DNA from: an uncultured Bifidobacterium sp.
GTDB lineage: Bacteria; Actinomycetota; Acidimicrobiia; Acidimicrobiales; Ilumatobacteraceae
Reading direction: 5' to 3'
DNA length: 45,334 bases
Assembly (NCBI GenBank): GCA_964595105.1
Contig: CAZQPJ010000001.1
Coordinates: 1 to 45,334 of the forward strand
Part shown: positions 13,133 to 42,314 of the stretch, one piece after another
How the letters are laid out: every line of letters begins with the position of its first letter
Position numbering within the stretch: the stretch's first letter is position 1
Made by a program: the position numbers and the translations under genes
The notes under the pieces: model-generated
Told to the model about the DNA's origin: nothing
The model's database searches: none
The model's input: the letters and a program-made list of their open reading frames with translations, nothing else

Positions 13133-14097
13133 AGTACACGCGCCTCGGCAGCAGTGGCCTCCAGGTGTCGCGGATCTGTCTCGGCTGCATGAGCTTCGGC
13201 GTACCCGACCGCGGCACGCACGCGTGGACGATGCCCGAGGACGAGAGCCGGCCCTACATCCGCCGCGCCCTCGAGGCCGGCATCAATTTCTTCGACACCG
13301 CCAACATGTACTCCGACGGAACGAGTGAGGAGATCGTCGGCCGCGCCATCGCCGATTTCGCCCGACGCGAGGAAGTGGTGATCGCCACCAAGGTCTTCTA
13401 CCCGATGCGCCCCGGACCCAACGGTGGCGGGCTGTCGCGTCGGTCGATCATGCACGAGATCGACGCCAGCCTCCGTCGACTCGGCACCGACTACGTCGAC
13501 CTGTACCAGATCCACCGCTGGGACCCTCGCACTCCGATCGAGGAGACGATGGAGGCCCTCCACGACGTGGTGAAGGCCGGCAAGGCCCGATACATCGGGG
13601 CGTCGTCGATGTGGGCGTGGCAGTTCGCCAAGGCGCAACAGGTGGCGGAACGTCACGGCCTCACCAAGTTCATCAGCATGCAGAACCACTACAACCTCGT
13701 GTACCGAGAGGAAGAGCGCGAGATGCTGCCGCTGTGCCTCGACCAGGGCGTGGGTGCCATCCCCTGGAGTCCGCTCGCGCGAGGACTGCTGACACGTGAG
13801 GCCGGCACCAGCACCATCCGGTTGGAGACCGACGAGTTCGGCAAGACCATCTACGGCACTGCCGATCAGGGGGTCATCGACGCGCTTGCGACCATTGCGA
13901 GCGAGCATGGGGCCAGCAAGGCCGCTGTCGGCCTTGCGTGGGTGGCGCGCCACCCCGCGGTGAGCGCACCCATCGTGGGCACCACGAAGCCGCACCATCT
14001 CGACGACGCGCTCGCGTCGCTCGACGTGGTGCTCACCGACGACGAGGTTCGCCGCCTCGAGGAGCCGTACACGCCCCAACCGGTGTATGGCCACTGA
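13129..14097 (+). CDS. aldo/keto reductase
   Basis: VKYTRLGSSGLQVSRICLGCMSFG N-terminus, DTANMYSDGTSEEIVG (catalytic Asp/Tyr region) and IHRWD motif. 322 aa. Confidence 0.9.
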   Translation: MKYTRLGSSGLQVSRICLGCMSFGVPDRGTHAWTMPEDESRPYIRRALEAGINFFDTANMYSDGTSEEIVGRAIADFARREEVVIATKVFYPMRPGPNGGGLSRRSIMHEIDASLRRLGTDYVDLYQIHRWDPRTPIEETMEALHDVVKAGKARYIGASSMWAWQFAKAQQVAERHGLTKFISMQNHYNLVYREEEREMLPLCLDQGVGAIPWSPLARGLLTREAGTSTIRLETDEFGKTIYGTADQGVIDALATIASEHGASKAAVGLAWVARHPAVSAPIVGTTKPHHLDDALASLDVVLTDDEVRRLEEPYTPQPVYGH

Positions 14098-15448
14098 CCG
14101 CGTCCATGCACCGAACAGGCTGCGAGTGGCACTCACGGCCACTGCCTTTCTCGGCGGGCTGTGGTGGGTGTGGCACTCGGGAGGGTTCGGTGGCGTGCTC
14201 GCCGCGGCAGCAGCGGCGCTCGCCTCACTCGGCCTGCGTCGACGGTCGCCGGCGGTGTTCGGTGGGCCGACCACCGCCGTGCTGGTCACCGCGGTCGTGT
14301 GGAATGCAGCGAGCCTGCTCGTGTACGCCGTGCCCGACAATGGCGATCGGTTCAGTTCACGAGTGGCCACCTGGGGCCGCGACCACGGTTACGGCGCGGT
14401 GATCGACTGGCTCGAAGCTCGGGCCTACAGCACGCCGCCCTCGAAGGAACCGGCCACCGACCTCGGCCTCGCCACGGTGCCCACGCTCGCGTCGACCACC
14501 GTGCCCGGCGCCACGTCGACGAGCCCTCAGAACACGGTGGCCGCAACGAACTCGCCCGTCACAGCGGTACCCAGCACCATGGTGCCGCCTGCTCCTGCTC
14601 CCCCACCCGCACTCGCACCCATCTTCGATCCCCCGTTGAAGGGCGAGGGCCAGTGGGTGCCCGTCGCCCAGGCCGGTGGTGCCGACGCGATGTGGGCGAC
14701 CAGCATGCGGTCGCTGGCCGCCGCAGGGGGCGTGGTGGCCACCATGGTGGTGATCGACCAGACCCATCTTCGGGCCGGACTGTTCAACGGAAGCGAGCTG
14801 CCGGGCGGAACCTGGAAGCGAGGCAACCGCGTGCCCAACGACCTTCAGCCGGCAGTGGTCGCAGCCATGAACGGCGGTTTCCGTTTCGACCACATGAAGG
14901 GCGGGTACCTCACCGAGGGCGTGGTGGTGAAGCCGTTGCGCACGGGCGATGCCACGCTCGCCATCGACCGCTCGGGACGGGTGGCGTTGGGCGTGCTCGG
15001 CCGCGATCTCTTCGACGACGGCTCGTGGGCGTCGATGCGGCAGAACCTCGAGTTGATGGTCGACGATGGGCGCTCGAACGTACGCACGGCGATCTCGCAC
15101 GGCGTGTGGTGGGGTGCCGACAACGGTCAGGCGGTGTACGTGAAGCGGTCGGCGGTGTGCACGGTGGCCGACGGGCGGCTCGCCTACGTGATGGCCGATC
15201 CGGTCGATGCCGAACAGTTCGCGCAGTCGCTCATCACCATGGGCTGCGTCGATGCGATGCAGATGGACATCAACGTCGACTGGCCGTTGTTCACCACCTT
15301 CAGTCACGACACTGGGAAGGCGGTGCCGCACCTCGTCGACCGGCGGATGACCGGCAACGCTCGGCGCGCACTCGACGGCAGCACGAAGGACTTCGTCGCC
15401 TTCTTCGATGCCACGCTGGTGCCGGCCGGGTCGGCACTCGACCCATGA
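14087..15448 (+). CDS. membrane-anchored phosphodiester glycosidase family protein (DUF2233/NAGPA-like)
   Basis: N-terminal TM segments and a Pro/Thr/Ser-rich linker. The C-terminal domain with NGGF..GGYL..G, RSAVCTVADGRLAYVM and AMQMDIN resembles DUF2233. The ATG overlaps the AKR 3' end by 11 nt. Confidence 0.7.
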   Translation: MATDRVHAPNRLRVALTATAFLGGLWWVWHSGGFGGVLAAAAAALASLGLRRRSPAVFGGPTTAVLVTAVVWNAASLLVYAVPDNGDRFSSRVATWGRDHGYGAVIDWLEARAYSTPPSKEPATDLGLATVPTLASTTVPGATSTSPQNTVAATNSPVTAVPSTMVPPAPAPPPALAPIFDPPLKGEGQWVPVAQAGGADAMWATSMRSLAAAGGVVATMVVIDQTHLRAGLFNGSELPGGTWKRGNRVPNDLQPAVVAAMNGGFRFDHMKGGYLTEGVVVKPLRTGDATLAIDRSGRVALGVLGRDLFDDGSWASMRQNLELMVDDGRSNVRTAISHGVWWGADNGQAVYVKRSAVCTVADGRLAYVMADPVDAEQFAQSLITMGCVDAMQMDINVDWPLFTTFSHDTGKAVPHLVDRRMTGNARRALDGSTKDFVAFFDATLVPAGSALDP

Positions 15449-15465
15449 GACTCAGAGATGAGTCT
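15448..15465. terminator. short hairpin spanning the two convergent stop codons
   Basis: AGACTCA-gaga-TGAGTCT: 7-bp stem, 4-nt loop. It overlaps the TGA of the DUF2233 gene (15446-15448) and the stop/last codons of the minus-strand Tat-signal gene (15452-). Confidence 0.3.
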
Positions 15466-16069
15466 TGCTCCAGGTGCTGTTGGCGCCAGCGGCCTTCGTG
15501 AACTGGAAGTCCTGCGTGTCGGCCGCCGAACCTACGGTGCTGTCGCCGTAGGTGCAGTTGTACTCGACGTAGCCCGTGATCTGGATGGAGTCACCGCCGG
15601 CGGCGTCGATGACCGATCCGCCACTTGCATTGAGGTGCCGGAACTGGAACGACGACGTTCCCCACCCGTTCACAGTCGGGTCGGTGTACGGACTGGGAAT
15701 GCTCACCGACACCGTCGCGCCCGCCCCAGACAGAGAGGTGAACACGTTGGAGAGGGGCGGAGCGATACCCCACGCATAACTGGTGGTGTTGTCGGCGAGC
15801 GATATGACGTACGCGGTCATCTGGATCGCGACGACCTCGGCGACCGTGTTCAAACAGGTCCCGCATGGTGCAAGCGCTGAGCCTGTGCACGAGGCATCGC
15901 CGATGGAGATGGACGCACTCGGGGCCGCCCTACCGGTCACGGTCACGTCGAGGATCCCCCCCACGACCGGGTTTGCGAACGCGAAGGCTGGAAGCGACTT
16001 CACTGCAGTCGCGCCAACGACCACAGCGCCACCGACTCCCAGTTTCTTCAACGCCTCGCGTCGGTTCAT
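15452..16069 (-). CDS. Tat-signal secreted protein of unknown function (205 aa)
   Basis: Track ORF trimmed to ATG 16069, preceded by GGAG. Twin-arginine signal MNRREALKKLGVGGAVVVGATAVKSLPAFA. The mature part is Ser/Thr/Gly/Ala-rich with 4 Cys. No family recognised. Confidence 0.6.
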   Translation of the reverse strand: MNRREALKKLGVGGAVVVGATAVKSLPAFAFANPVVGGILDVTVTGRAAPSASISIGDASCTGSALAPCGTCLNTVAEVVAIQMTAYVISLADNTTSYAWGIAPPLSNVFTSLSGAGATVSVSIPSPYTDPTVNGWGTSSFQFRHLNASGGSVIDAAGGDSIQITGYVEYNCTYGDSTVGSAADTQDFQFTKAAGANSTWSKTHL

Positions 16070-16180: not shown

Positions 16181-16807
16181 GTGATCATACGAACGCCAAC
16201 CGACACTTTTCGGCGAACACTCGATGTCGCCGTGGCGGTCGGCGCGCTGGTCATCGGTTCGCCGATCATCGCCGGGGTCGCGTTACTGGTTCGGCTGCGA
16301 ATGGGCAGCCCCGTACTGTTCCGTCAGGAGCGGCTCGGGCTCGGTGGCCGCCCCTTCCGCCTCGTGAAGTTCCGAACGATGCTCCAGCCTGCGCCAGGCC
16401 GCGAGAGTCCGGAGTTCGACGCAGAGCGACTCACTGCCTTCGGACGCTTCCTGCGCTCCACCAGTCTCGACGAACTGCCGGAGTTGGTGAACCTGCTCCG
16501 TGGCGACATCACCCTCGTGGGACCACGGCCATTACCCGTCGCCTACTTCCACCGCTATCGCGGCGACGAGTTCGAGCGTTTCGAGGTGAAACCGGGCATC
16601 ACCGGCCTCGCCCAAGTGAGCGGTCGCAACACTCTCGACTGGGACGAGCGACTTGCACTCGACGTGCAGTACGTGCGCAATCGGACCATTCGGGGCGACC
16701 TAGTCATTCTCGCCCGCACCGTCGCAGTGGTGCTACGACGCGACGGTATCGACCAGACTGGAGGGGTCACCATGCACCCCCTTCCCGCCGATCGTCCCCA
16801 TGCCTGA
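16181..16807 (+). CDS. small monotopic phosphoglycosyl transferase (bacterial sugar transferase, PglC/WbaP-C-terminal type)
   Basis: 208 aa, GTG start. Re-entrant helix LDVAVAVGALVIGSPIIAGVALLV. PVLFRQERLGLGGRPFRLVKFRTM, SLDELPELVNLLRGDITLVGPRP and KPGITGLAQVSGRN closely follow the PglC-type pattern. Confidence 0.9.
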   Translation: MIIRTPTDTFRRTLDVAVAVGALVIGSPIIAGVALLVRLRMGSPVLFRQERLGLGGRPFRLVKFRTMLQPAPGRESPEFDAERLTAFGRFLRSTSLDELPELVNLLRGDITLVGPRPLPVAYFHRYRGDEFERFEVKPGITGLAQVSGRNTLDWDERLALDVQYVRNRTIRGDLVILARTVAVVLRRDGIDQTGGVTMHPLPADRPHA

Positions 16808-17171
16808 CGCGCCTCGCATCATCAGCATTCGCGAACCCCTGCCCGCCACCTTGCCCGTGCGGCGCAGCGACCTCGAGGTCGCAGAGTTCGACACCGAACT
16901 CGTCGTGTGGGATCCGGTCGCACGGATGGTGCATCACCTCCACGGCGTTGCGGCCATCCTGTTCGATGCGTGCGACGGCCTCACACCATCGAGCCAGCTC
17001 ATCGGTGAGATCCAGGAGGCAACCGGGCTGAGCCGCGCCGTCGTCGATGAGGAACTGACCACGGTGTGGCAGATGTTCAACCGTCGCTCGTTGTTCGCGC
17101 TGCCACCCGGCGTCACCGAGGAGGCGAAGCCAGCACCGCAGGCCCGTCAGCGACGCCGCAGGAGGGCATAA
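16800..17171 (+). CDS. PqqD-family (RRE-like) small protein
   Basis: 123 aa. The ATG overlaps the transferase stop by 8 nt. LEVAEFDTELVVWDPVARMVHHLHGVAAILFDACDGLTPSSQLIGEIQEATGLSRAVVDEELTTVWQMF matches the PqqD beta-strand + winged-helix pattern (E.DGE.vv.d...g..h.LN..a..iw..cDG..t..ei). Arg-rich tail. Confidence 0.65.
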   Translation: MPDAPRIISIREPLPATLPVRRSDLEVAEFDTELVVWDPVARMVHHLHGVAAILFDACDGLTPSSQLIGEIQEATGLSRAVVDEELTTVWQMFNRRSLFALPPGVTEEAKPAPQARQRRRRRA

Positions 17172-18328
17172 GCGGCCATCGTGCGGTCGATGATGGCGCG
17201 GTCGCCGAACTCGGCGGCAGCTCGTGCGGCGGCCGCAGCACCCATCGACGCGCGTAGGCCGACGTCGCCCACCAGTTGCCCGCACGCCTCGGCCAACGCC
17301 GACGCATTGCGAACCGGCACGGCAAGGCCAGTGGTGCCGGGCACCACCACCTGTCGGTTGCCACGAATGTCGGTGGCCACTGCGGGCAGCCCCATGGCCG
17401 CAGCCTCCATCGCCGCCCGCGGAAATCCTTCGCGCCAACTCGCGGTGACGAACAGGTCGAACGCCGCATAACACTCAGGCATGTCGTCGCGCCGTCCGGT
17501 GAACACCACGCCGCTGGCGGCCGCGTTCGACATCAGGTCGGGGGGCAGCGCATCGGCCTTGTCGGTGTCGGTGGGGCCCACCACCACGAGCCGGGCAGGT
17601 ACTCCCCGCGTGTGCAGCAGCGCTGCAGCATCGACGAGCTCGACGATGCCCTTCTCCACCACGAGGCGGCCAACGGTGCCGCACACCACCTCGCCGTCGG
17701 CGATGCCCCATTCGCCACGCAGTCGGGCGCGGGCACCTGGGTCAATTGCGGCCCGATCGAAGCGATGGAGGTCGATGCCGTTTCCCAATAGGCGCACCTT
17801 CCGCGCCGGAACTCTCAGCGTGCGGACCAATGTCTGCACGTCCTCCTCGTTCTGCACCAACTCCACATGACCGAACGCCGCCGCAACACGCTCGACCGCG
17901 TACACCGGCCAGCGGCGCTGCCACCGGTCGCCGGGTTGGGCATAGAGACCATGCTGGGTGTTCACCACCAACGGCACTCGAGCGAGACGCCCGGCGATGC
18001 GGCCGAGCACACCGGGTTTGGGATTGTGCGTGTGGAGGATGTGCGGACGCACCTGCCGTAGCAGGCGCACCAACTGAACGAAGGCGCGGAGGTCGTCGAG
18101 CGGCTTCGTGGAGCGCGTGAACGCCGGCACCGGCACGTGCCGCACACCCATCGCCTCGAGGGTCGCGACGTGAGGCCCGGGCGCCGACATTCCGATCACC
18201 TCGTAGCCCGCTTCGGCGTACGCCCGCAGTTGCGGCCCCAGCAACCAGTCGAGGCTCATGTCGGTGGTGGTGAGGTGCACCAGGCGGATCCGGTCGCCCT
18301 GCGGTGGTGGAAGACCCGGGGCCTTCAT
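17147..18328 (-). CDS. GT4-family glycosyltransferase
   Basis: Track ORF trimmed to ATG 18328 (ATGA overlap with upstream stop). GT-B pattern with the C-terminal EGFPRAAMEAAAMGLPAVATDIRGNRQVVVPGTTG (E-x7-E region). Confidence 0.9.
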   Translation of the reverse strand: MKAPGLPPPQGDRIRLVHLTTTDMSLDWLLGPQLRAYAEAGYEVIGMSAPGPHVATLEAMGVRHVPVPAFTRSTKPLDDLRAFVQLVRLLRQVRPHILHTHNPKPGVLGRIAGRLARVPLVVNTQHGLYAQPGDRWQRRWPVYAVERVAAAFGHVELVQNEEDVQTLVRTLRVPARKVRLLGNGIDLHRFDRAAIDPGARARLRGEWGIADGEVVCGTVGRLVVEKGIVELVDAAALLHTRGVPARLVVVGPTDTDKADALPPDLMSNAAASGVVFTGRRDDMPECYAAFDLFVTASWREGFPRAAMEAAAMGLPAVATDIRGNRQVVVPGTTGLAVPVRNASALAEACGQLVGDVGLRASMGAAAAARAAAEFGDRAIIDRTMAAYALLRRR

Positions 18329-19125
18329 CGGGTGGAACCGCGGTACTTGACGATGCCTGCCGCGCTCCGCAGCCGACCTTCGAGACGGAGCCCACCGGCC
18401 GCCTTCGCGGCGAAATGAGTGAAGCCGTCGCTGCGCTGCACTGGCGTTCGCCACAGGCGGTGGACGTCGGTGCGACCCGGACGGTTGACGCGATTACCAG
18501 CGAGCGCTGCCGACACGAAGCGCCGGCGAACCGCCACCTCGGCGGCGGGAGAACCGGGCAGTGCCTTCGGGTAGGCGAAGTGAGCGGGCATGGCGCCGGT
18601 GTGTTCGGCGAGCAACTCGATCGAGCGGTCGAGGTCGTCGGCGATCGTGTCGGCATCGGCCCGGTCGAGCAGCCAGTGGCCGTGTGTGTGCGACCCGAGC
18701 GTGACGAGGCCGGTCGACACCGCATCGCGCAAGCCCGACCACGACGCTGGTGGGGCTCCCCACGGGAACTCCACCTGTTCATCGATGAATCGCGTGGCGA
18801 CGTAGAGCGTGGCCGGCAGGTGATGCCGTTCGAGCAGTGGCACCACCACGTCGGGGAAGTCGGCCGTGCCGTCATCGAAGGTCAGCACGATGGCGGGTGT
18901 GGGGTCACCGGACGAGAGTTGTGTGAGAGCGTCGGCCAACGACGTCACCCTGTGATGTTCTGCGAGATGTCCGAGTTGCCGGTCGAACTCCGCAGCGTCG
19001 AGATCGACTTCGGATCCCGAGCCGCCTCCAACGCGGTGGTAGATGAGCACGGTCACACCGGCCGGCGGCGGTATCACCCGATCAACGGCGGCGGCAACGC
19101 GTTTCACGAACCCCTTCGCATTCAT
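18325..19125 (-). CDS. polysaccharide deacetylase (NodB homology domain)
   Basis: VLIYHRV, LTFDDGTADF and LGSHTHGH motifs. ATGA overlaps at both ends (19122-19125, 18325-18328). Confidence 0.85.
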   Translation of the reverse strand: MNAKGFVKRVAAAVDRVIPPPAGVTVLIYHRVGGGSGSEVDLDAAEFDRQLGHLAEHHRVTSLADALTQLSSGDPTPAIVLTFDDGTADFPDVVVPLLERHHLPATLYVATRFIDEQVEFPWGAPPASWSGLRDAVSTGLVTLGSHTHGHWLLDRADADTIADDLDRSIELLAEHTGAMPAHFAYPKALPGSPAAEVAVRRRFVSAALAGNRVNRPGRTDVHRLWRTPVQRSDGFTHFAAKAAGGLRLEGRLRSAAGIVKYRGSTR

Positions 19126-20195
19126 CGTCCGACAACCCGGCGATAGAGCTGAACGTGATCGGCCACCACATCGGCGATGGTACGGCCCGGGCCACGCCCG
19201 AGCGCTGCAGCGCGCATCGAGCGCCGCAATACGGGGTCGAGCGCGAGTTCGGCGATTGCCTCTCCGAGCGCCGACGGGTCGGAGGGCGGCACCACCCTTC
19301 CCACATCACGCCCGACCAACTCGGGCACCCGACCCACGGCCGTGGCCACCACCGGCACCCCCAGCGCCAGCGCCTCACCGACCACCAACGGCTGGCCCTC
19401 GTAGTCGCTCGACACCACGAGAAAATCGGCTTCGGCGATGAGCGGCAGGACATCACGCTCGGGTGGACGCCACTCGGTGACCGCACCAAGACCGAGCCCA
19501 TCGGCCATGCGGCGATGTGTGGCCAACAGCGGACCCTCTCCCACTGCCAGCAGTGAGACACCAGCCCCCCGGCCACGTGCATACGACACGGCTCTCAGCA
19601 GGTTCGGGTAGTTCTTCGCATCGCGATGACTGGCCACCACGATGGCCCGCACGCCGACTCGTTCATCCGACGACTCGGCACGACGAGCGGCCGCCACAGC
19701 GACCGCATCGATGCCGTGCGGCACCACGATGACACGACGAGCGAACTGCCGCGGCAACGAGGCCTGCACAGCGGCCGAGACGGCCACGCTGGCGACCTCG
19801 CGACGAGACGTGGCGCGCAGCAGCAGTCGCGTGCCGGCGCGCAACGCGGACCACGGCGTGTGCGATGTGCCGATGGAGCGCCGCGACCGCGCCAGGCGCA
19901 CCATCACGCTCGGCAACGGTCCATGGGCGTGCACCACGTCGAACCTCGGTTGTCGAGCCAGCAGAGCGAGTCGGCGCGCCGCTGCCCAGCCCACACGGTC
20001 GGTGCCGCCCAGTCGGTGCACCACCACGCCGACATCCTCGAGAAACTGCATCATGGCGTCGCGGCGATCGTTCACCACCGCCACCTCGACAGGCACCCCG
20101 GCAGCGGCGAGGCCCACGGCGAGGTCGACCACGATGCGTTCGATACCACCCACGTCGAGCCCTTTGGCCACCAGCAGTACGCGGGGTTCGCTCAT
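19122..20195 (-). CDS. GT4-family glycosyltransferase
   Basis: Track ORF trimmed to ATG 20195 (ATGA overlap). VLLVAKGLDVGGIERIVVDLA N-terminus. YEGQPLVVGEALALGVPVVATAVGRVPELV E-x7-E region. Confidence 0.85.
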   Translation of the reverse strand: MSEPRVLLVAKGLDVGGIERIVVDLAVGLAAAGVPVEVAVVNDRRDAMMQFLEDVGVVVHRLGGTDRVGWAAARRLALLARQPRFDVVHAHGPLPSVMVRLARSRRSIGTSHTPWSALRAGTRLLLRATSRREVASVAVSAAVQASLPRQFARRVIVVPHGIDAVAVAAARRAESSDERVGVRAIVVASHRDAKNYPNLLRAVSYARGRGAGVSLLAVGEGPLLATHRRMADGLGLGAVTEWRPPERDVLPLIAEADFLVVSSDYEGQPLVVGEALALGVPVVATAVGRVPELVGRDVGRVVPPSDPSALGEAIAELALDPVLRRSMRAAALGRGPGRTIADVVADHVQLYRRVVGR

Positions 20196-21313
20196 CGCCG
20201 CAGTCTCGCGAATCGAAGGCCACGCCGGAGTTGCCGGCCGATGGTGAGTCCGCGGCCCTGTCGCACCCCTCGTGGTGGAAGGGCGACTCCCCCGACGAAG
20301 CGAATGCCGTCGAGGAACGACAACGCCATCAGTTGACTGCGCGCGTCGGCAATCCATCCGACACCCTTGCCGCTGTCGGCGTACCGAAGTGCGAGGAGGG
20401 CGCGCCCGGACGGCGACACCGTCGCGGCCCAGATCGCCATCGGGTGTTCCCGCGGCACCACACCTGCACCAACCGCTTCCGTGACCGCCAGGGCGAGCAC
20501 CGACTCTCCATCGCCAGAACGGGCGAGTTCGAGCGATCGCCGCCAGTCGATTCCGGTGACGAGCAGTTGCTGGGCGAGGTCGCGCAGGTAGCGGTGCGTG
20601 GAACCTCGGCTGAGGACAGCCGCGTAGCAGGACAACAGGAGGCGGGCAGGCCCCCCGAGTGAGGCACACACGACACCGCCAAGAGTGAACCGGTCGGCGT
20701 CGCGCACCAGCATCTCGTGGTCGAGTGCCGCCCCGAAGTAACCCGGGGCGATCGACACATGGAGGTCGACTTCAACGTCGTGCTGCGAGCGCAGCATCAC
20801 GGCCCGGGCGAAGCGACCTTCCCATCCTCGGCGCGGCGGTGGCTCGGTCCGACGGAAACCAGCCGCGCCAAGCGCCTCGACCGCGGCATGCAACTGCGGC
20901 CGGGCCACCAACACGTCGACGTCCCCGGTCGAACGCCACGCAGGGTCGGGATAGTCGATCTGGGCCACTGGCACACCCTTGATGAGCCACGCATCCACAC
21001 CTGCGGCGCTCAACACCTCGATCACGCGAACCGCCGTGGCCTCGCACACGAGCGAGGTCCGCATCTGCCCGATGAGCAGACCCACGCCTCGAGCATCGAA
21101 CCGGCGGTCGACATCGATGGATTGCAGGAGATCGACGAACACACCCGCGAGTTGCTGGCCAGCTGCCCACTGGGCCACGTGCTGCACCGTCGGAACGGTG
21201 AGCTCATCGAGTGCGAGCGTCGCCGTGGGGCCCACATCGGGAAGGCCGTGCACGAGTACCGCATGCTGCAGCCGGTTGAGCGCCGACTCGTCGGCGGGTG
21301 CGGCATCGCTCAT
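20192..21313 (-). CDS. PF14907-type (NTP_transf_5) uncharacterised nucleotidyltransferase family protein
   Basis: 373 aa. WLIKGVPVAQIDYPDPAWRSTGDVDVLV followed by HDVEVDLHVSI matches the family pattern (KG...y......R...DiDlLv ... vElH). ATGA overlaps at both ends. Confidence 0.7.
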   Translation of the reverse strand: MSDAAPADESALNRLQHAVLVHGLPDVGPTATLALDELTVPTVQHVAQWAAGQQLAGVFVDLLQSIDVDRRFDARGVGLLIGQMRTSLVCEATAVRVIEVLSAAGVDAWLIKGVPVAQIDYPDPAWRSTGDVDVLVARPQLHAAVEALGAAGFRRTEPPPRRGWEGRFARAVMLRSQHDVEVDLHVSIAPGYFGAALDHEMLVRDADRFTLGGVVCASLGGPARLLLSCYAAVLSRGSTHRYLRDLAQQLLVTGIDWRRSLELARSGDGESVLALAVTEAVGAGVVPREHPMAIWAATVSPSGRALLALRYADSGKGVGWIADARSQLMALSFLDGIRFVGGVALPPRGVRQGRGLTIGRQLRRGLRFARLRR

Positions 21314-22146
21314 TGATCAGGCACCACCGCCGAGGGCACGGCGGCGCTGACCAAACGATCGAGTGAGGCCACCATCAGACCGAGATCCGTCCGCGGCATC
21401 TGCACGGCGGGCACGGCACGCACCAGTCGCTCGAGCCTCCGGAACACCTCCCGCTCGACGCCGGCGGCGCCATGCACATTGCTGAGCAGTGTGGTGAGGG
21501 CAGCAGCCGGTGACATCGCCTCGACGACACCATCCGCTGTGGGCGGCGTGAGGAAGACGAGCACCGTCACACGTGTGCGATCAGCCAACCGACCGAGCGC
21601 GCTGCCCCGCCATGGCTCCACCACATCGAACAGCTCGTCGTCTCGCCGAGCGAGACGGAGGTGAAGGAGCCCACCACGCCGCAGCCCGAGTGGCCGATGG
21701 AATGCGTGGGCAACGTGGTGATCGTCCACGAGTCCGAGTTCGTCGGAGACATACCCCCACCCGGAACGCACAGCACCAGCCGCCAATGTCGTCTTGCCGA
21801 AGCCGCTGTAGCCGATGATGGCGCACCCGACGCCGTCACGATCGACGACAGCGGCGTGGATGGCGGCATGTTGCCGCGACCAGTGCTCAGCCACCGTCTC
21901 GTTCACCATTGCGAGCGCCGCGTGGAGCGCCTTCGAGGAGTCGAGGGCGGTTCCCGCTGGTATCCCACCCCGGTGGAGGTCGAAGGTGCCATCGACGGCG
22001 GTCGTGATGGTGAGGGCCGGAGCAGTCGACGACACGGCTGGCACACGAAGGTCGGCGAGTGCCTCGATGAGCACTGAAGCGAGCGGCTCCGCTGCCGAGA
22101 GAGTGAAGCCGCACTCGCCTGCGGCGAACGCTGCCGTTGCGGTCAC
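21310..22146 (-). CDS. HPr-kinase-related P-loop kinase (HprK C-terminal-domain homologue)
   Basis: Start set at GTG 22146 (GTGA overlap with the Wzy-like stop), giving 278 aa. P-loop AIIGYSGFGKTTLAAGAVRSGWGYVSDELGLVD (nt 21787-21813 encode GYSGFGKTT) parallels HprK G.SG.GKS..AL.L...GH.L.aDD. Confidence 0.75.
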   Translation of the reverse strand: MTATAAFAAGECGFTLSAAEPLASVLIEALADLRVPAVSSTAPALTITTAVDGTFDLHRGGIPAGTALDSSKALHAALAMVNETVAEHWSRQHAAIHAAVVDRDGVGCAIIGYSGFGKTTLAAGAVRSGWGYVSDELGLVDDHHVAHAFHRPLGLRRGGLLHLRLARRDDELFDVVEPWRGSALGRLADRTRVTVLVFLTPPTADGVVEAMSPAAALTTLLSNVHGAAGVEREVFRRLERLVRAVPAVQMPRTDLGLMVASLDRLVSAAVPSAVVPDQ

Positions 22147-23513
22147 ACTGTCACCTTGGGTCGGGCGCGGCCCTGCGGCAACGGGGGCCGGTAGGGCGCC
22201 GTCGGCTTCCACGGCGGCACCGACACCAGCAACACCATGAACGGCATGGCGAGCGACCGCTGCCGGGTGAGCAGCCCGAGATTGCGGAACGTGCTGAAGG
22301 CGAGTCCGAACATCACCAGCACCGACAACGCGAACCAGAGATAGGGACTCCTGCGCATCATCACCACCACGTTCACCACGCGCCGCCACCCGATCGCTGC
22401 CAGCACGGCGAGGGCGAACATCTCGAGGCCGGGAAGGAGTTCGGTGAACGTGGCGACCTCGGTGATGAAGGGCCGTGTGAGCGTTCGCAGCACAGCGCCG
22501 GGCCAATCGAGCGGACCACTGATCACCACCGGCGAGAAGGTAGAGCCTCCCGTGTCGGTTCGGTTCTCCGTCGACTGGAAGATGGCGTCGATCCGATCGA
22601 CGAGTGGGGCAGCGTCGGCAGCGTCGCCGCGAGGGCTCAGGAATCGGAGTGCGGAACTGGCTGCCAGCCCGAACGTGATGGCGACGACGGCCACCAACAC
22701 GAAACTGCCGAGGCGGCTCTCATTCGCGCCGGGTGAACGCCGCACCAGCACCGATGCAACTAGGCCGATCACGAGGCCACCAGTCCACATGGCCGACAGG
22801 TGTGGCCGGACAAGCGCGGCCAAGAAGACCCCGATGACGGTGATCGGGATGGTCCACCCACGCCACCTTCCGTGCAGCAGGCCTGCGCCGCCGTAGGTGA
22901 GGAGCCCGAGGAACAGCATCATCAACGCTTCCTTGCCAATGCTCGACGGCCAGAACATCAGCGAGGGAGCGAAGAAGACGAGCAGCGCGTACCGACGCCT
23001 GCTGAGGCCGGGCACCGCGCGTATGCCGGCCAACACGAACAGCGTCGCGCCGATGAATCCAAGCCACGAGTAGACGAAGAACCCACCGAGGCGGCTGCTG
23101 CCGAAGATGGTGTACACGCTCGCGGTGAAGCGTTCGACGAAGTGGGTGCTGTTGCCCGACGGGATGATGTTCGACAGCGAGGCTGCCCCACTGCGGATGT
23201 CGCCCGCCAACTGGCGACCGAAGGCGTCGTAGCGGGCCGCATCGGCACTGCCGGCGTATGCATCGAAGGCCACCCAGTAGCGGAAGATCGATCCGCCGAA
23301 CTTGGCGAACAGTCCCGCCACCGCAATCGGGAAGAGCCGACTCAGGTCACCTCTGAACACGCGGCGCAGGATCGGCACCGTGACGGCCACGAGGATCGGA
23401 GCGATCACGAAACCTCCCCACACCTCGTAGGAGAGACTCGACATCGCCCATCCGGTGACCACCACGTACAACAGTGCGCCGAGCACCGCGACGCCTTCGT
23501 ACCTCGGACGCAT
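22143..23513 (-). CDS. polytopic membrane protein, Wzy-like polymerase / O-antigen-ligase-like (family not resolved)
   Basis: 456 aa, roughly 10 or more hydrophobic spans with one large soluble loop (SPRGDAADAAPLVDRIDAIFQSTENRTDTGGSTFSP...). It lies directly after the Wzz/BY-kinase gene (3-nt gap). Call rests on topology and context only. Confidence 0.5.
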   Translation of the reverse strand: MRPRYEGVAVLGALLYVVVTGWAMSSLSYEVWGGFVIAPILVAVTVPILRRVFRGDLSRLFPIAVAGLFAKFGGSIFRYWVAFDAYAGSADAARYDAFGRQLAGDIRSGAASLSNIIPSGNSTHFVERFTASVYTIFGSSRLGGFFVYSWLGFIGATLFVLAGIRAVPGLSRRRYALLVFFAPSLMFWPSSIGKEALMMLFLGLLTYGGAGLLHGRWRGWTIPITVIGVFLAALVRPHLSAMWTGGLVIGLVASVLVRRSPGANESRLGSFVLVAVVAITFGLAASSALRFLSPRGDAADAAPLVDRIDAIFQSTENRTDTGGSTFSPVVISGPLDWPGAVLRTLTRPFITEVATFTELLPGLEMFALAVLAAIGWRRVVNVVVMMRRSPYLWFALSVLVMFGLAFSTFRNLGLLTRQRSLAMPFMVLLVSVPPWKPTAPYRPPLPQGRARPKVTV

Positions 23514-23516
23514 GGG

Positions 23517-25436
23517 TCAGTCCGTTCGGTCGTCGATGTCGTCGATGTCGTCGATGCCGTGATCGTCCCGCAGCGGGTCGTCGACCAACACCGCAGCGGT
23601 CGGTTCGTCCGGCTCGGCCTCGACGAATTCATCGATGGTGTGCGAACCGCTGATGGCGGCGTCATCGGCCCGCTGCGAACGCCGTCGACGACCGTTGGAG
23701 CCGGTGGCAGAACTGTCCGACGAGCGGTCGTTGCGCAACGCCTCGAGCCACTTCTTCGTCTTCGGCGTGCGACGGGTGCGGTTGTAGTCGGCGCCATAAC
23801 TGCCGTACTCGTAGTAGTAGTAGTAGTTGCCCTTGTCGGACGCATCACCCACCACGGCCAGCAACAGGTCGGCGGTGGTGAGCGACCTCAGCACCTCGAT
23901 GGTGCGCTGGGCGGTGGCGATGGAGGTGTTGCCGAGGCGGGTCACCACCACGATCACGTCGGCCAACGGCACGAGTTCGAGCACCTCGGCCGTGGCACCG
24001 ATGGGTGACGAGTCGACGACGATGGCATCGGCCAACTTCGCGAGGCGGGGCAGGAACTGCGCGGTGGTGCGAGCCAGGCCGCCGTGGGTGCCGCCGGGTA
24101 CACCCGCGAGGTCCATCAGCGCGAGACCGGGCACCGGAGTGCGGCTCAGCAGGAACCGCGGCGGCAACGAGGCGAGTTCGGCTGCGGTGAACCCCATCGG
24201 CTGCGGCTTGCTGCCGAGGATGCGGGTGCTCAGGGTGGGTCGGCGGAAGTCGGTGTTCACCGCAATGGTGCGCGAACCGGTTTCCACGAAGGCGGCCGCG
24301 AGGTTGGCGGTGACCGAGGTCTTGCCGTCGCCGGGGCTGGCCGACACCACGAGCACGATCGGGGCTCGACCCTCGTCCTTGGCCGAGCCGCCCTCCACGA
24401 AGCCGAGCACACTGCGCAGTGTTCGGTACGAGTCGGACAGTCCGTCGTGCCGAGTGGGGCTGACGACGATGCCGCGGGCCTGTTCCGCGGGAGCCACGGG
24501 GATGGTGACGTTCGCACGGATGCCGAAGATCTGTTCGGCCTGGGAACGGGTGCGGATTCGCCGGTCGGCTCGAGCCAGCAGCAGGGCGATGCCAGCGCCG
24601 ACGAGACCGCCGAGGAAACCGCCGAGCACACCGCGGCTGAGGCGCGAGCGGGGCGCAGCCAGGCCTCGACCGGCATTGCTGAGCACCTTCACCGGCTGCG
24701 CCGATTCGAGCGTGGTGAGGACGATCTGCGATTGCGTGTCGCCGAGCGACGACTGCTGTTCGTAGGCGGCGCTGTATCGGCGGCTGATGGCGTCGAGTTG
24801 CGAACGGACGACCTCGTCGTTCTGGTTCAGCGCCAGCTTGTTCTGGAGCGTGCGCATCTGTGACTGCAGGTCTTCGAGGCGCTTCTGCACTGCGGCCGAG
24901 CGCTGCTCGACGAGCACGTCCTGACGCTCGGCGAGGTAGGCGGTGAGTTCCTCGGCGAACGCGTCGGCGATGTCGACGGCTCGTTGCGCCGACGCCTGCT
25001 CGGTGCCGATGCGGATCGCGCCGGTCTGTGCGTTGAGCTCGACCGTGAGTTCACTGGCCAACTGGGCGGGCTCGCCGTCGTAGCCGAGGCGCTTCGCTGC
25101 TCGGGCGGGAACCTCGCCCACCGTGGCGAACAGTTCCAACTGGTTGAAGGTGGTCTGGTTCTGGAAGATGTCGTTGCCGGTGGGGTCGGACACCAACAGC
25201 GTGTGGTTGGCCTTGTAGGTGACGTTCTGGTCGGGCGAATCGGCGGTGGTGGTGGGATTGGGCAACGCCCCGAGGAGCATGCCCACTGCGGCCAGCAGGA
25301 CGACGATCCACCACCGGCGGCGAAGAGCGAGGAGAAGCGACTCTCTATCCACTTGTGCGGTGACCTCATCCGGGGGGCGGCGCGACCCGACCGATCGCGA
25401 TTCACCACACATTAGGCGCTGGAGTGGCACACTCAT
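23517..25436 (-). CDS. polysaccharide co-polymerase (Wzz domain) fused to BY-type tyrosine autokinase
   Basis: N-terminal TM, long coiled-coil Wzz-like periplasmic region and a second TM. Then P-loop VVSASPGDGKTSVTANLA with VNTDFRRP and IVVDSSP motifs, and the C-terminal Tyr cluster GNYYYYYEYGSYGADYN. The start may lie downstream (e.g. GTG 25352). Confidence 0.9.
   Translation of the reverse strand: MSVPLQRLMCGESRSVGSRRPPDEVTAQVDRESLLLALRRRWWIVVLLAAVGMLLGALPNPTTTADSPDQNVTYKANHTLLVSDPTGNDIFQNQTTFNQLELFATVGEVPARAAKRLGYDGEPAQLASELTVELNAQTGAIRIGTEQASAQRAVDIADAFAEELTAYLAERQDVLVEQRSAAVQKRLEDLQSQMRTLQNKLALNQNDEVVRSQLDAISRRYSAAYEQQSSLGDTQSQIVLTTLESAQPVKVLSNAGRGLAAPRSRLSRGVLGGFLGGLVGAGIALLLARADRRIRTRSQAEQIFGIRANVTIPVAPAEQARGIVVSPTRHDGLSDSYRTLRSVLGFVEGGSAKDEGRAPIVLVVSASPGDGKTSVTANLAAAFVETGSRTIAVNTDFRRPTLSTRILGSKPQPMGFTAAELASLPPRFLLSRTPVPGLALMDLAGVPGGTHGGLARTTAQFLPRLAKLADAIVVDSSPIGATAEVLELVPLADVIVVVTRLGNTSIATAQRTIEVLRSLTTADLLLAVVGDASDKGNYYYYYEYGSYGADYNRTRRTPKTKKWLEALRNDRSSDSSATGSNGRRRRSQRADDAAISGSHTIDEFVEAEPDEPTAAVLVDDPLRDDHGIDDIDDIDDRTD
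23529..23555. repeat. three perfect tandem copies of GTCGTCGAT (encode IDDIDDIDD at the kinase C-terminus)
   Basis: Read directly: GTCGTCGAT at 23529-23537, 23538-23546 and 23547-23555, followed by the degenerate copy GCCGTGATC. Confidence 0.9.
23811..23825. repeat. (GTA)5 trinucleotide run = (TAC)5 encoding the YYYYY core of the BY-kinase tyrosine cluster
   Basis: Read directly: gtagtagtagtagta at 23811-23825. Confidence 0.9.
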
Positions 25437-25441
25437 GGCTC

Positions 25442-26572
25442 ATGACGGCGTTCCGGGTGCTGCTGTCGCCACCAGAGGTGAGTGACGTCGAACGGCGGAT
25501 GCTCATCGACGCATTCGACTCGGGCTGGATCGCACCCGCAGGGCCCGACCTCGATGCCTTCGAACGTGAACTTGCCGAGTTCACGGGCGCCAACGCCGTG
25601 GCCGGACTCTCGAGCGGCACCGCCGGGCTGCACCTCGCCCTCATGGCCGTCGGCGTGGAACCCGGTGACGACGTGATGGTGAGTTCACTCACCTTCGGCG
25701 CCTCCGCGTTCGCCGTCACGTACCTCGGCGCACGGCCATGCTTCATCGACTGCGAACCGCACACCTGGCACCTCGACCCCGACCTGCTCGAGGAGGAGCT
25801 GCAGCGACGTGCTGGTGACGGCACCCTGCCGGCGGCGGTGGTGGCGGTGCATCTCTACGGCTCGATGGCCGACACCAGCCGTATCGCAGCGGTGTGCTCA
25901 CAGTTCGAGGTCCCTCTGGTGGAGGACGCGGCAGAGGCGATCGGTGCCACGCGGCACGGCGTGGCAGCCGGCAACGACGGCGTCGTGTCGGTGCTCTCGT
26001 TCAACGGCAACAAGATCGTCACCACCGGTGGCGGCGGCGCCGTGATGTCGGCCGACGAGACCGTGGTGCAACGGGTGCGGCATCGCGCCACGCAGGCGCG
26101 ACGACCCGTGCCGTGGTACGAGCACGACGAGATCGGTTTCAACTATCGAATGGGCAACCTCAACGCGGCAGTGGGCCGTGGACAGTTGCGAACGCTGCCG
26201 GCTCGCATCGCCGAACGTCGCCGAGTTCGCTTGGGCTACGAGCGCCATCTGTCGGGCCTGCCCGGTGTGTCGTTCCAAGGGGCACCGGAGGGTGTCGAAC
26301 CGAACCATTGGCTCACCACGGTGCGGTTCGACACGGCTGCATTCGGTGCCACTCCGGCCGAAGTGGTGGGCGCTCTGCGCGATGCCGGCATCGAGGCACG
26401 GCACGGATTCAAGCCCATGCACCAGCAGCCGGTGTTCCACGGAGCGCCGATGGTGGGAGGCGCCGTGGCCGACGACCTCTTCGCCACCACCGTCAGCCTT
26501 CCGTCGGGCTCGCGGCTCGCCGATGAGCAGGTCGAGTGGATCAGTGGAGTGGTCGCATCGGTGTCGCGCTGA
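25442..26572 (+). CDS. DegT/DnrJ/EryC1/StrS-family PLP-dependent sugar aminotransferase (PglE-like)
   Basis: N-terminus VLLSPPEVSDVERRMLIDAFDSGWIAPAGPDLDAFERELAEF...LSSGTAGLHLAL parallels the PglE-type LSPPhm.g.E..yi.eaf..nwIAPlG..v..FE. SFNGNKIVTTGGGGAV carries the PLP-lysine region. ATG 25442 preferred over the upstream GTG 25424. Confidence 0.9.
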   Translation: MTAFRVLLSPPEVSDVERRMLIDAFDSGWIAPAGPDLDAFERELAEFTGANAVAGLSSGTAGLHLALMAVGVEPGDDVMVSSLTFGASAFAVTYLGARPCFIDCEPHTWHLDPDLLEEELQRRAGDGTLPAAVVAVHLYGSMADTSRIAAVCSQFEVPLVEDAAEAIGATRHGVAAGNDGVVSVLSFNGNKIVTTGGGGAVMSADETVVQRVRHRATQARRPVPWYEHDEIGFNYRMGNLNAAVGRGQLRTLPARIAERRRVRLGYERHLSGLPGVSFQGAPEGVEPNHWLTTVRFDTAAFGATPAEVVGALRDAGIEARHGFKPMHQQPVFHGAPMVGGAVADDLFATTVSLPSGSRLADEQVEWISGVVASVSR

Positions 26573-27111
26573 TCGCTCTCGTCACCGCAGCCGTGTGGTG
26601 GTGGGCCCTCACCGCGTGTCGTGCCGTGTTCACCCGGCCCGGAGCACTGCCGAGCCTCATCCTGCTGGTGACGGCGGCTGCATACCTGTGTGTTCCCGAG
26701 ACCGACCAGTTCAAGGGGGTGGCGCTCCTCGTCGTCGGAATCGGCCTGCTGGAGGTGACGAGCCGTGAGGTGCTTCCCGCCATGTGGCACGGGGCACTCC
26801 TGGCGGTGGTGTTGTGGGCCGGCCTCTTCGGCGCCACCGGTCGCGGGTCGGCGGTGGTGGGGGCGGTGTTCGCCGGTTGGGTCATCGTGCTGCCGGCGCT
26901 CGGGATGGCGGTGACCTCCGGTTCGAGCCTGCGAACTCACATCGTCGTGGCGTGTGGCGCGGCGGCAGCATCGGTCACCGTGGCCCGTACCGGCGCCCTG
27001 GCCACCACGGTGCGACCGGCGCTCGCATGGTCGGTGGCAGCGGCCAGTGGCTCCGCCCTCATGGCACTGCTGTTGCTGCGGCGCGGTAGGCCTCCACACC
27101 ATTCGCGCTGA
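26536..27111 (+). CDS. hypothetical integral membrane protein (~5-6 TM, 191 aa)
   Basis: Strongly hydrophobic ORF with a GTG start overlapping the aminotransferase 3' end by 37 nt. Its 3' end overlaps the convergent DUF4012 gene by 53 nt. No family recognised. Confidence 0.5.
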   Translation: MDQWSGRIGVALIALVTAAVWWWALTACRAVFTRPGALPSLILLVTAAAYLCVPETDQFKGVALLVVGIGLLEVTSREVLPAMWHGALLAVVLWAGLFGATGRGSAVVGAVFAGWVIVLPALGMAVTSGSSLRTHIVVACGAAAASVTVARTGALATTVRPALAWSVAAASGSALMALLLLRRGRPPHHSR

Positions 27112-40692: not shown

Positions 40693-40791
40693 TACGACAC
40701 GAACGCCTCTACATCGGGGCTTTCCGGCCGTGTGTCCCTTTCAGTGTGGGCACGTCGTGCTACCGTTCGGCCACTCCGGAGGTAGGTCAAC

Positions 40792-41298: not shown

Positions 41299-41302
41299 TT
41301 CT

Positions 41303-42019: not shown

Positions 42020-42286
42020 TCAACCCAACTGCACGTGGCCGCTCGCCAGCAGCGAGTCGAGCGCAGACACCACATCGGCAGGCACGGCATCCAGCCGGCC
42101 GCACAGGTCGTCGAGCGTCGCCGGTTCGTCGAGCGCCACCCACACCAGTGCAGCCCACCCGGTGAGTTCGGAACTCGCGTCGTCGGGATTCCCATCGATC
42201 GCCTGTGTGAGCACCGAGTGCCCGTAGAGACGCCAGACCATGCGTGGAGTTCGCATGAATGTCGCACCGCGGTCCACACCGTTCAC
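42020..42286 (-). CDS. second PqqD/RRE-like small protein (73-88 aa depending on start)
   Basis: WRLYGHSVLTQAIDGNPDDASSELTGWAALVWVALDEPATLDDLCGRLDAVPADVVSALDSLLASGHV fits the PqqD winged-helix pattern (L...aa.vw..ldep.T..eL...l......v...L..L...g.v) with a shortened beta region. Possible starts are GTG 42286, ATG 42256 and ATG 42241. It lies 30 nt upstream of the PglD-like gene on the same strand. Confidence 0.5.
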   Translation of the reverse strand: MNGVDRGATFMRTPRMVWRLYGHSVLTQAIDGNPDDASSELTGWAALVWVALDEPATLDDLCGRLDAVPADVVSALDSLLASGHVQLG

Positions 42287-42314
42287 GATCCAATCCTGCC
42301 ACTACGCTCGGCCC

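Follow-up and report, generated by a model that had tools for sequence, protein, structure and literature searches.

What would a kinase and transferase pair of the kind known from lasso peptide tailoring do inside a polysaccharide operon? The function of the kinase/PF14907/PqqD trio outside lasso peptides was still open after its entry in TIGRFAMs and after the 2026 study of LPP clusters, and the question is raised anew by contig CAZQPJ010000001.1 from a member of the Ilumatobacteraceae, which was analyzed here as a whole (the window is this complete contig of 45,334 bp, 68% G+C, the longest recorded one with these proteins). Its best hits likewise suggest a probable, Ilumatobacteraceae-like origin within the Acidimicrobiia. 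We consider it moderately probable that the window holds an actinobacterial tailoring module of the paeninodin/LPP type set into a polysaccharide operon. Serine phosphorylation guided by recognition elements (RREs) for peptides that are made by the ribosome and modified after translation (RiPPs) would be followed by addition of a sugar in the manner of PsmN, and the ribosomal protein so modified would most likely be one with a twin-arginine translocation (TAT) signal. The two enzyme genes lie in a minus-strand operon of seven genes, which starts with a bacterial tyrosine kinase (BY-kinase) and ends with a family 4 glycosyltransferase (GT4):

23517-25436, minus strand: BY-kinase / chain-length co-polymerase, 639 aa (TIGR03018 and TIGR01007 matches below cut-off; Walker A motif and Tyr cluster)
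22143-23513, minus strand: multi-pass membrane protein labeled Wzy-like, 456 aa (about 8-10 hydrophobic segments; family unconfirmed)
21310-22146, minus strand: HprK/PEPCK-fold P-loop kinase-like protein, 278 aa, a relative of the LppK/PsmK-like serine kinases (profile, fold, conserved residues)
20192-21313, minus strand: PF14907 (NTP_transf_5) Pol-beta-fold nucleotidyltransferase, 373 aa, PsmN/LppN-like (PF14907 match, catalytic motif)
19122-20195, minus strand: GT4 glycosyltransferase (Glyco_trans_1_4, Glycos_transf_1 and Glyco_transf_4 matches), with an ATGA overlap at the transferase stop
18325-19125, minus strand: polysaccharide deacetylase (Polysacc_deac_1, PF01522, 70.8 bits), with an ATGA overlap at each end
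17147-18328, minus strand: GT4 glycosyltransferase, final gene of the operon (Pfam GT4 matches), its ATG at 18328 overlapping the deacetylase stop

The original prediction had described an almost gap-free operon of seven genes with 4-nt overlaps around the kinase and the transferase, and because the junctions were read straight from the sequence this nearly gap-free arrangement can be taken as real. The kinase-like gene starts at GTGA (22146-22143), overlaps the membrane-protein gene by 4 nt and has AAGG 8-9 nt upstream; it shares a further 4-nt overlap with the transferase gene at ATGA (21313-21310), and the transferase stop and GT4 start meet at ATGA (20195-20192). The GT4/deacetylase junction (ATGA, 19125-19122) and that between the deacetylase stop and the last GT4 start (ATGA, 18328-18325) are built in the same way, and the only spacer, of 3 nt, separates the BY-kinase stop (23517) from the Wzy-like ATG (23513). 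Pfam agreed with the predicted GT4, deacetylase and GT4 downstream of the transferase. The BY-kinase carries the Walker A motif SASPGDGKTS and a C-terminal Tyr cluster GNYYYYYEYGSYGADY, with a TIGR01007 score of 50 bits that is below the cut-off. For the label Wzy-like only the multi-pass topology and the place after the BY-kinase speak: the 456-aa protein gave no Pfam, NCBIfam or PDB sequence match, and membership of Wzy or Wzy_C could not be confirmed by sequence.

The predicted 278-aa protein with an HPr-kinase-type P-loop IIGYSGFGKTTLAAGAVRSGWGYVSDE was recovered on translation of 21310-22146, and its GTG start is backed by nine homologues of 275-278 aa which align from residue 1. In searches with hidden Markov models (HMMs) it scored 20.5 bits against Hpr_kinase_C (PF07475, cut-off 33.3), with only profile positions 6-50 of 171 matched, and 51.1 bits against TIGR04352, where the equivalog cut-off is 200 and a true member in L051, one of the related loci described below, scored 388.5. 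Since both thresholds were missed, the protein is a relative within the HprK superfamily and not a member of either family. The HMM check of the prediction thus failed at family level, but the P-loop, the His, the acidic pair and the fold all matched. A profile built from 56 diverse relatives had HprK/P 1ko7 as its best solved match (E 8e-9), and the window residues LHA..GYSGFGKTT..SDE align with LHG..GDSGIGKS..ADD of 1ko7 (upstream His, P-loop, downstream acidic pair). Residues H97, G112, S114, G115, G117, K118, T120, E136, R151, P152, G154 and R156 are invariant or nearly so among the 56 relatives, and these include the P-loop Lys and Thr (K118, T120) whose conservation had been proposed as a check.

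A precomputed match of the kinase to PF27840 (ScmC) is on record. Its AlphaFold2 (AF2) model (predicted local distance difference test score, pLDDT, 96) matched PEPCK and HprK/P in Foldseek (1kkl, 3tqf; TMt 0.5-0.65). The protein therefore shares with HprK/P the aligned P-loop, the preceding His, the following acidic pair and the fold, while it differs in its score below the Pfam cut-off, in its N-terminal domain and in having no phosphotransferase system context. An exhaustive HMMER search returned a family of 918 cluster representatives at E <= 1e-10, mostly of about 270 aa. Some of these are N-terminally extended, and in four the extension is a PqqD domain above the Pfam cut-off.

For the 373-aa protein, translation of 20192-21313 reproduced the predicted NTP_transf_5 pattern (IKGVPVAQIDYPDPAWRSTGDVDVLV ... 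VEVDLHV), and the HMM search placed it as a clear member of PF14907 (74.2 bits, cut-off 31.2) with the motif hG[GS]...DxD...D intact. Across 33 homologues G113, D131, D133, H185 and D245 are invariant and K112, E181 and D183 nearly so; the nucleotidyltransferase aspartates on which the assignment depended (D131, D133) are thus conserved. Foldseek searches with the AF2 model (pLDDT 93) gave weak core matches to ANT(2'')-Ia, LnuA and FKRP, with TM scores of 0.25-0.35 on the query and 10-23% identity over a generic core. The top matches include ANT(2'') 5cfs and 4xje, which are also structural relatives of PsmN. A PDB sequence search with the transferase gave no match, and literature searches on PF14907 found nothing dealing with the kinase/transferase/PqqD system. 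With LicD, fukutin, FKRP and the ANT-type Pol-beta transferases the window enzyme has in common a nucleotidyltransferase core with a metal-binding DxD, but the core similarity is weak and there are about 170 extra helical residues. Enzymes of the LicD, FKRP and ANT types have sugars or glycans as their targets; in the case of FKRP and LicD, what is transferred is a phospho-alcohol, and it comes from a CDP donor.

Two PqqD-like proteins had also been predicted, and both were found, one of them coupled to a phosphoglycosyl transferase gene:

16800-17171, plus strand: PqqD-type RRE A, 123 aa, its C-terminal tail rich in Arg (tblastn and family profile A8)
42020-42256, minus strand: PqqD-type RRE B, about 78 aa (tblastn, jackhmmer and family profile A7)
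16181-16807, plus strand: small PglC-type polyprenyl-phosphate phosphoglycosyl transferase (Bac_transf 189.6 bits; TIGR03025 220 bits)

As single sequences RRE-A (18.1 bits) and RRE-B (14.5 bits) are both below the Pfam PqqD cut-off (PF05402, 23.4). Using tblastn, RRE-A was matched to the Pfam-annotated PqqD genes of related loci (E 1e-12 to 1e-17) and RRE-B to the small open reading frame (ORF) upstream of the kinase gene in L004, L005 and L006 (about E 1e-10), and jackhmmer started from a Pfam-verified PqqD recovered both. The RRE-A family profile A8 matches TbiB1 5v1u (E 5.1e-10), TfuB1 6jx3, PbaB1 9x90, LppB 9x8z and PqqD 3g2b; the RRE-B family profile A7 matches TbiB1 5v1u (E 5.5e-8), PbaB1 9x90 and LppB 9x8z, and 11 of the 16 members of this family match PF05402. 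Judged by family-level homology to solved RREs, RRE-A and RRE-B are genuine PqqD-type RREs.

The last 8 nt of the phosphoglycosyl transferase gene are shared with the start of RRE-A, and the same succession of the two genes was found in L005, L010, L012 and L054. In L004, L005 and L006 the RRE-B orthologue is the gene directly upstream of the kinase gene, the start of which it overlaps. The start of RRE-B in the window is ambiguous (ATG 42256 or GTG 42286). The annotated starts of the divergent RRE-B (42020-42286, minus strand) and of a low-molecular-weight (LMW) phosphotyrosine phosphatase gene (42240-42863, plus strand) overlap by 17-47 nt, and therefore at least one start codon is probably mis-assigned. 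RRE-A proteins extend C-terminally past the PqqD fold in L001 (11082-11471, minus strand), L005 (16894-17292, minus strand), L007 (12160-12528, minus strand) and the window. Several RRE-A homologues have a conserved PPC(I/V)GC followed by an Arg-rich tail, and the window copy has the Arg-rich tail alone (QRRRRRA).

Enzymes of these kinds are known from two types of peptide pathway. The LPP (linear polyphosphorylated peptide) clusters of Bacillota comprise a SipW-like peptidase, a discrete RRE, LppK, LppN and an MsbA-like exporter (Popov et al. 2026, Nat Commun 17:6633, PMC13381572). Each encodes 1-3 precursors of 35-200 aa with a conserved N-terminus and a variable C-terminus, and the clusters form part of capsular polysaccharide loci, with a BY-kinase as neighbor; the HprK-like LppK polyphosphorylates Ser3 of the precursor core (PMC13381572). 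In pseudomycoidin biosynthesis PsmK phosphorylates the C-terminal Ser, and PsmN, which is ANT(2'')-like by modelling, is needed for the addition of one or two hexoses to the phosphorylated residue, its DxD being essential (Zyubko et al. 2019, PMC6993621). The original prediction held that either of the functions it proposed for the pair would be undescribed. This is outdated, as cyclase-less LPP clusters with an RRE, an HprK-like kinase and an NTP-transferase in capsule loci of Bacillota (PMC13381572) and hexose transfer by PsmN (PMC6993621) have both been reported. What is still new is the actinobacterial version, its gene-level fusion into a Wzy/BY-kinase operon and the TAT-leader proteins. 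The paeninodin tailoring kinase PadeK was reportedly the subject of work by Zhu et al. in 2016.

The statement that the window lacks a lasso cyclase, a leader protease and a recognizable precursor was upheld over the whole 45-kb contig. Pfam and NCBIfam scans, which took in essentially all of its sizeable ORFs, and phmmer searches with Asn-synthase and B2 seeds detected neither an Asn-synthase-like cyclase nor a B2 protease, nor any precursor bearing a YxxP leader. A lasso cluster lying just outside the finding was rejected on the same results, as the window is the entire contig. No S24 or S26 peptidase match, and so no SipW-like signal peptidase (LppS), was obtained in any scanned ORF, and no ORF in the window carries the LPP leader YxxPxVLxHQxIxFETxxS. 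A 191-aa ORF considered as a hidden SipW-like peptidase was rejected, since its product is a multi-pass membrane protein of small size. When the small ORFs of cyclase-less loci were clustered all against all, no small conserved precursor emerged, only the PqqD genes and, opposite conserved genes, their antisense shadows; the method works, because the same analysis recovered the lasso precursors of Pseudonocardiaceae.

Related loci (given by their L numbers) were gathered from precomputed gene neighborhoods, a GTDB species-genome scan and a metagenome-contig scan, and annotated by HMM and phmmer. Both scans rest on the transferase alignment; a scan with the kinase alignment gave no true relatives. 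For statistics a set of 36 non-redundant loci of at least 15 kb was used, 22 of type I (cyclase-less) and 14 of type II (lasso). The kinase/transferase pair recurs in these two mutually exclusive settings. Type I loci, from Ilumatobacteraceae and other Acidimicrobiia, Jiangellales and other Actinomycetota, have neither cyclase nor B2 protease, and the pair is interleaved with genes for a BY-kinase, for the membrane protein known from the window, for paired GT4 and deacetylase enzymes, and for PglC/D/F-like and DUF4012 proteins. Several of these loci have the transferase on one side of the membrane-protein gene and the kinase on the other. The kinase was present in 20/22 type I loci, at least two PqqD genes in 19/22, and at least three glycan gene families in 18/22. 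Because the interleaving of the pair with a glycan operon recurs in more than 20 independent loci, we regard the module as integral to the glycan locus; this proposal is supported, and the conserved linkage looked for in the gene neighborhoods is present.

Type II loci belong to Pseudonocardiaceae (Actinophytocola, Amycolatopsis, Prauserella, Haloechinothrix, Pseudonocardia) and contain an operon of PqqD, B2 (NF033537, 59.5 bits) and kinase, together with an ABC transporter and proteins with an Asn-synthase domain. The precursors of these loci are marked by a YxxP leader, Thr at -2 and a C-terminal Ser, for example MKNEYRTPAVEDLGQLQELTLGGNDGDRLDADFNAGTPRGDITFS. The occurrence of HprK homologue, PF14907 protein and PqqD together in some lasso clusters, stated in the original prediction, is borne out by these loci. 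The window enzymes thus resemble the paeninodin/pseudomycoidin tailoring enzymes both in the combination of an HprK-like kinase with a Pol-beta-fold DxD transferase that has ANT(2'') relatives and in having homologues in lasso clusters with Ser-ending precursors, whereas the window has no cyclase, B2 protease or lasso precursor and its context is a Wzy/BY-kinase operon. Lasso clusters with kinase and PF14907 tailoring genes were noted in L003 (11208-11345, minus strand), L052 (10998-11177, plus strand), L025, L028, L030, L033, L096, L097 and L084. The only cyclase candidates in type II loci are one or two short (376-386 aa) Asn_synthase-domain proteins without the N-terminal GATase-like domain, and the clusters have AsnB, beta-helix and GT4 genes as neighbors.

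The statement that the trio had been defined in TIGRFAMs was also correct: the HPr-rel-A system of NCBIfam consists of TIGR04352 HprK_rel_A, TIGR04353 PqqD_rel_X and a PF14907 gene, and has no assigned function. All three kinds of gene are present in the window, where the PqqD genes are non-adjacent, and they are adjacent in L004, L005 and L006. However, the window kinase scores 51 bits against the 200 required and the window PqqD proteins have no TIGR04353 match; the module is a separate clade of the superfamily. In L051 (7192-8166, minus strand) the canonical HPr-rel-A cassette has, a few kb away, genes for sigma-54 response regulators and for three further proteins, namely a PEP-CTERM, a large TPR and a beta-helix protein. 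Such surroundings are of the exosortase-type exopolysaccharide kind, and so the link between the trio and surface glycans may extend beyond Gram-positive bacteria.

Two functions had been proposed for the pair in the original prediction, RRE-guided modification of a protein or peptide, and activation of a substituent by a LicA/LicC-like kinase and nucleotidyltransferase. The first is the better supported. We favor a peptide- or protein-directed activity because PqqD is found fused to relatives of the kinase and encoded by genes that overlap the kinase gene, and because the other context of the pair is one of Ser-ending lasso precursors. Such precursors are the substrate type known for HprK-like kinases (PMC13381572, PMC6993621), which gives this assignment further support. 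For a LicA/LicC-like pair we found no positive evidence past the fold-level resemblance.

A broader form of the glycan-directed explanation, which we judge unlikely, would have the kinase phosphorylate a sugar, a lipid-linked intermediate or the polymer. The transferase would then nucleotidylylate this or, in the manner of LicD/FKRP, add a phospho-substituent from a nucleoside diphosphate (NDP)-alcohol or NDP-sugar, and the PqqD proteins would serve as scaffolds. The placement of the genes between the Wzy-like and GT4 genes with 4-nt overlaps, the translational coupling of RRE-A to the phosphoglycosyl transferase and the lack of a canonical precursor peptide in the window would suit it, as would the full-length superposition of the kinase model on PEPCK and the fact that ANT(2''), LnuA and FKRP, the Foldseek matches of the transferase, work on sugar hydroxyls or glycans. 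Those matches are nevertheless weak (TM 0.25-0.35) and cover a generic core only, and each characterized HprK-family member cited here phosphorylates a serine of a protein or peptide. The PqqD fusions and overlaps, and the Ser-terminated precursors in the closest other context of the pair, likewise argue against a glycan substrate. LicC-type sugar-phosphate nucleotidyltransferases, moreover, belong to a different fold family.

If the module acts on a ribosomal product, a candidate substrate is encoded in the window itself:

15452-16069, minus strand: twin-arginine-signal protein, about 205 aa, Cys-containing, candidate substrate/precursor (leader MNRREALKKLGVGGAVVVGATAVKSLPAFA, followed by F...; TIGR01409)

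The TIGR01409 score of this protein is 18 bits (cut-off 16.7), and a Pfam search of the mature parts of the TAT-signal proteins, the window copy included, found no known domain. Homologues adjoin the kinase or the transferase gene in L001, L004, L006, L009, L010, L012, L054 and L055. Most type I loci encode 1-3 TAT-leader proteins of about 150-350 aa, whose Cys-containing mature part differs between clades. Such proteins were present in 17/22 type I and 0/14 type II loci (Fisher p = 3e-6), and the association is exclusive to the cyclase-less setting. In most clades the leader has WxxPx[VIL] just past the hydrophobic stretch (VWSAPVL, VWAAPVI, GWTVPVI or AWSTPMV, for example), which fits the published RRE-binding motif [Y/W]xxPx[LVIAFY] (PMC13381572).

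Loci outside the sample on which the association was noticed gave similar results. A TAT-leader protein was present in L054 and L055, and L056, which has a non-glycan context with nonribosomal peptide synthetase (NRPS) neighbors, encodes a 74-aa RR-leader peptide immediately upstream of its PqqD, kinase and transferase genes. In L051, with the canonical HPr-rel-A cassette, an RR-leader ORF of 91 aa lies upstream of PqqD_rel_X. On metagenome contigs 3/5 distinct type I loci and 0/3 lasso loci had a TAT-leader protein. TAT-leader proteins track the module and not the polysaccharide machinery, because they also occur where glycan genes are few or missing (L018, L022, L044, L056). Despite unrelated mature parts, TAT-leader proteins and peptides often have Cys or Cys-Pro among the last 2-4 residues, as in L024, L026, L027, L029, L032, L036 and L091 (...LIYCCPR), in L004 and L006 (...SACP, ...SSCP), in L015, L021 and L023, and in L051 (989-1264); the window copy does not.

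For the proposed tailoring of a TAT-signal protein, we envisage the following course. The two discrete PqqD-type RREs would bind the N-terminal leader of the ribosomal substrate, most likely the TAT-signal protein at 15452-16069, and the HprK-like kinase would phosphorylate, possibly polyphosphorylate, a serine of it in the cytoplasm, by homology to PadeK, PsmK and LppK. The PF14907 transferase may then add a sugar to the phosphate as PsmN does, the donor probably being a nucleotide sugar made by the surrounding locus, which would give a phosphodiester-linked glycan. Export of the modified protein would proceed by the TAT pathway or an MsbA-like pump, and a general signal peptidase would cut the leader after AFA, replacing the SipW-like peptidase of LPP. 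The candidate pump is the following:

34689-36437, minus strand: MsbA/HepA/PglK-like ABC exporter (ABC_membrane and ABC_tran; MsbA_rel, HepA_fam and PglK below cut-off)

This exporter gene is 13 kb from the module and is not kept beside it in related loci; it may be a counterpart of LppD or simply a glycan flippase.

The parallel with LPP is close in several respects. In both systems a free-standing RRE, a kinase resembling HprK and an NTP-transferase occur without a cyclase inside a capsule or exopolysaccharide locus with a BY-kinase; in LPP an MsbA-like exporter belongs to the set, to which the ABC exporter of the window may correspond, and the leader is removed by a signal-peptidase-type enzyme. 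Unlike LPP, the window has no SipW-like peptidase and has two RREs instead of one, and the candidate substrates bear real twin-arginine signals (with WxxPx[VIL], degenerate in the window) and not YxxPxVLxHQxIxFETxxS. The genes are also woven into a Wzy-like/GT4 operon by overlapping codons, whereas LPP genes form a separate cassette, and the phylum is Actinomycetota and not Bacillota, to which LPPs and paeninodins are said to be confined (PMC13381572).

Several findings weigh against a TAT-signal protein as the substrate of an LPP-type module. The clade of the window has a degenerate leader motif, (V/K/L)xxPAF, which lacks an aromatic residue (KSLPAF in the window protein) and precedes the AFA cleavage site, and one paralogue has no Pro. 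The TAT proteins share no conserved Ser around their predicted cleavage site and none was found to end in Ser, and about a quarter of the cyclase-less loci have no detectable TAT-leader protein. The gene distances are also unfavorable, with the TAT-signal gene 4 kb and RRE-B 20 kb from the enzymes in the window. In the predicted structure the whole-chain fold of the kinase is no closer to HprK/P than to PEPCK, which acts on a small molecule. For LppN no activity was detected when a heterologous host was used, and the end product of LPP was not found either (PMC13381572), so that the chemistry of the precedent itself is incomplete. Directly upstream of the RRE, kinase and transferase genes of L053, a gene at 9203-9727 (plus strand) encodes instead a Sec-signal protein with a C-terminal GWPF, transmembrane and RRR anchor, which may represent an alternative substrate class.

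The co-localization of LPP with capsule loci and their synchronous up-regulation, for which no chemical link has been demonstrated (PMC13381572), would also be compatible with an independent RiPP-like pathway which shares locus and regulation with the glycan, as may hold for LPP and paeninodin in Bacilli, and whose peptide product is not chemically joined to it. RR-leader modules outside glycan loci (L056 beside NRPS genes; L018, L022 and L044 with few glycan genes) point the same way. We nonetheless hold such independence to be improbable: the window genes are inside the operon with start/stop overlaps and not merely adjacent to it, the transferase and kinase flank the Wzy-like gene in other loci, parts of the module are spread over 26 kb of the glycan locus, and RRE-A overlaps the phosphoglycosyl transferase gene. 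LppN, in addition, is suspected to require a partner or substrate encoded beyond the core cluster, among the polysaccharide genes around it (PMC13381572).

The BY-kinase immediately adjacent to the module and the LMW phosphotyrosine phosphatase in the locus suggest another possibility, namely that kinase and transferase phosphorylate and nucleotidylylate the BY-kinase, the Wzy-like protein or the phosphoglycosyl transferase and so tune polymer synthesis, with the RREs as adaptors to the tail of that component. The coupling of RRE-A to the phosphoglycosyl transferase and the conserved C-terminal CxGC and Arg-rich tails on RRE-A homologues could be accommodated in this way. Such a regulatory role is very unlikely in our estimation, as it has no precedent in the family, the PsmN precedent is glycosylation and not protein nucleotidylylation, the module is found also without BY-kinase or Wzy-like genes, and the exclusive co-occurrence with TAT leaders would be left unexplained.

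Returning to the TAT-signal protein as substrate, a more far-reaching version, which we put forward as rather doubtful, is that TAT signals double as RiPP leaders. The RREs would hold the TAT substrate in the cytoplasm by its signal peptide, like TAT proofreading chaperones, while kinase and transferase build a Ser-phosphodiester sugar which the glycosyltransferases of the operon, perhaps with Wzy and BY-kinase, extend. If true, the product would be a proteophosphoglycan, a protein covalently bearing the polysaccharide of the locus through phosphate, which the NAGPA-domain enzyme described below could trim or release. Should the link between the module and the TAT-signal proteins be real, it would tie leader recognition of the RiPP kind to TAT export and to the assembly of cell-surface glycans, and a system thought to be restricted to Bacillota would extend to abundant freshwater and soil Actinomycetota. 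The actinobacterial loci in any case offer a sharper handle on the trio, with the module welded into a glycan operon and no dedicated peptidase, and with a testable class of candidate substrates, TAT-signal proteins with an RRE-like leader motif, that the sister lasso clusters do not have. For the question left by the 2026 LPP study, the association with TAT leaders provides a concrete and testable lead.

The remainder of the window is one polysaccharide locus from about 14 kb to the right contig end, the left 11 kb being unrelated (SNF2 helicase, dehydrogenases, HAMP protein). The locus has PglF-, PglE/DegT-, PglD- and PglC-like genes, a UDP-sugar dehydrogenase, two epimerases, DUF4012, the LMW phosphotyrosine phosphatase, an AT3-SGNH acyltransferase and five GT4 genes, one of which is fused to a GNAT domain. 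One further gene is convergent with that of the TAT-signal protein:

14087-15448, plus strand: NAGPA-domain phosphodiester glycosidase (PF09992, 38.5 bits)

NAGPA-type enzymes cleave sugar-1-phosphodiesters, and this activity would fit a serine-phosphate-sugar product. A weak NAGPA gene was also seen in the independent locus L054 (7913-8890, minus strand), about 1 kb from the kinase, and in none of the other related loci; we regard the glycosidase as a possible accessory only.

Between the PglF-like and PglD-like genes about 600 bp (40692-41303) have no convincing ORF and form the largest non-coding gap of the glycan locus. The 191-aa membrane protein mentioned above (26536-27111, plus strand) follows directly after the DegT gene and has no family assignment; its ORF takes the same position in L005 and is present also in L013. 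The GT4 fused to a C-terminal GNAT acetyltransferase (30397-32523, plus strand) is a 708-aa protein with homologues in L007, L013, L020, L023 and L041.

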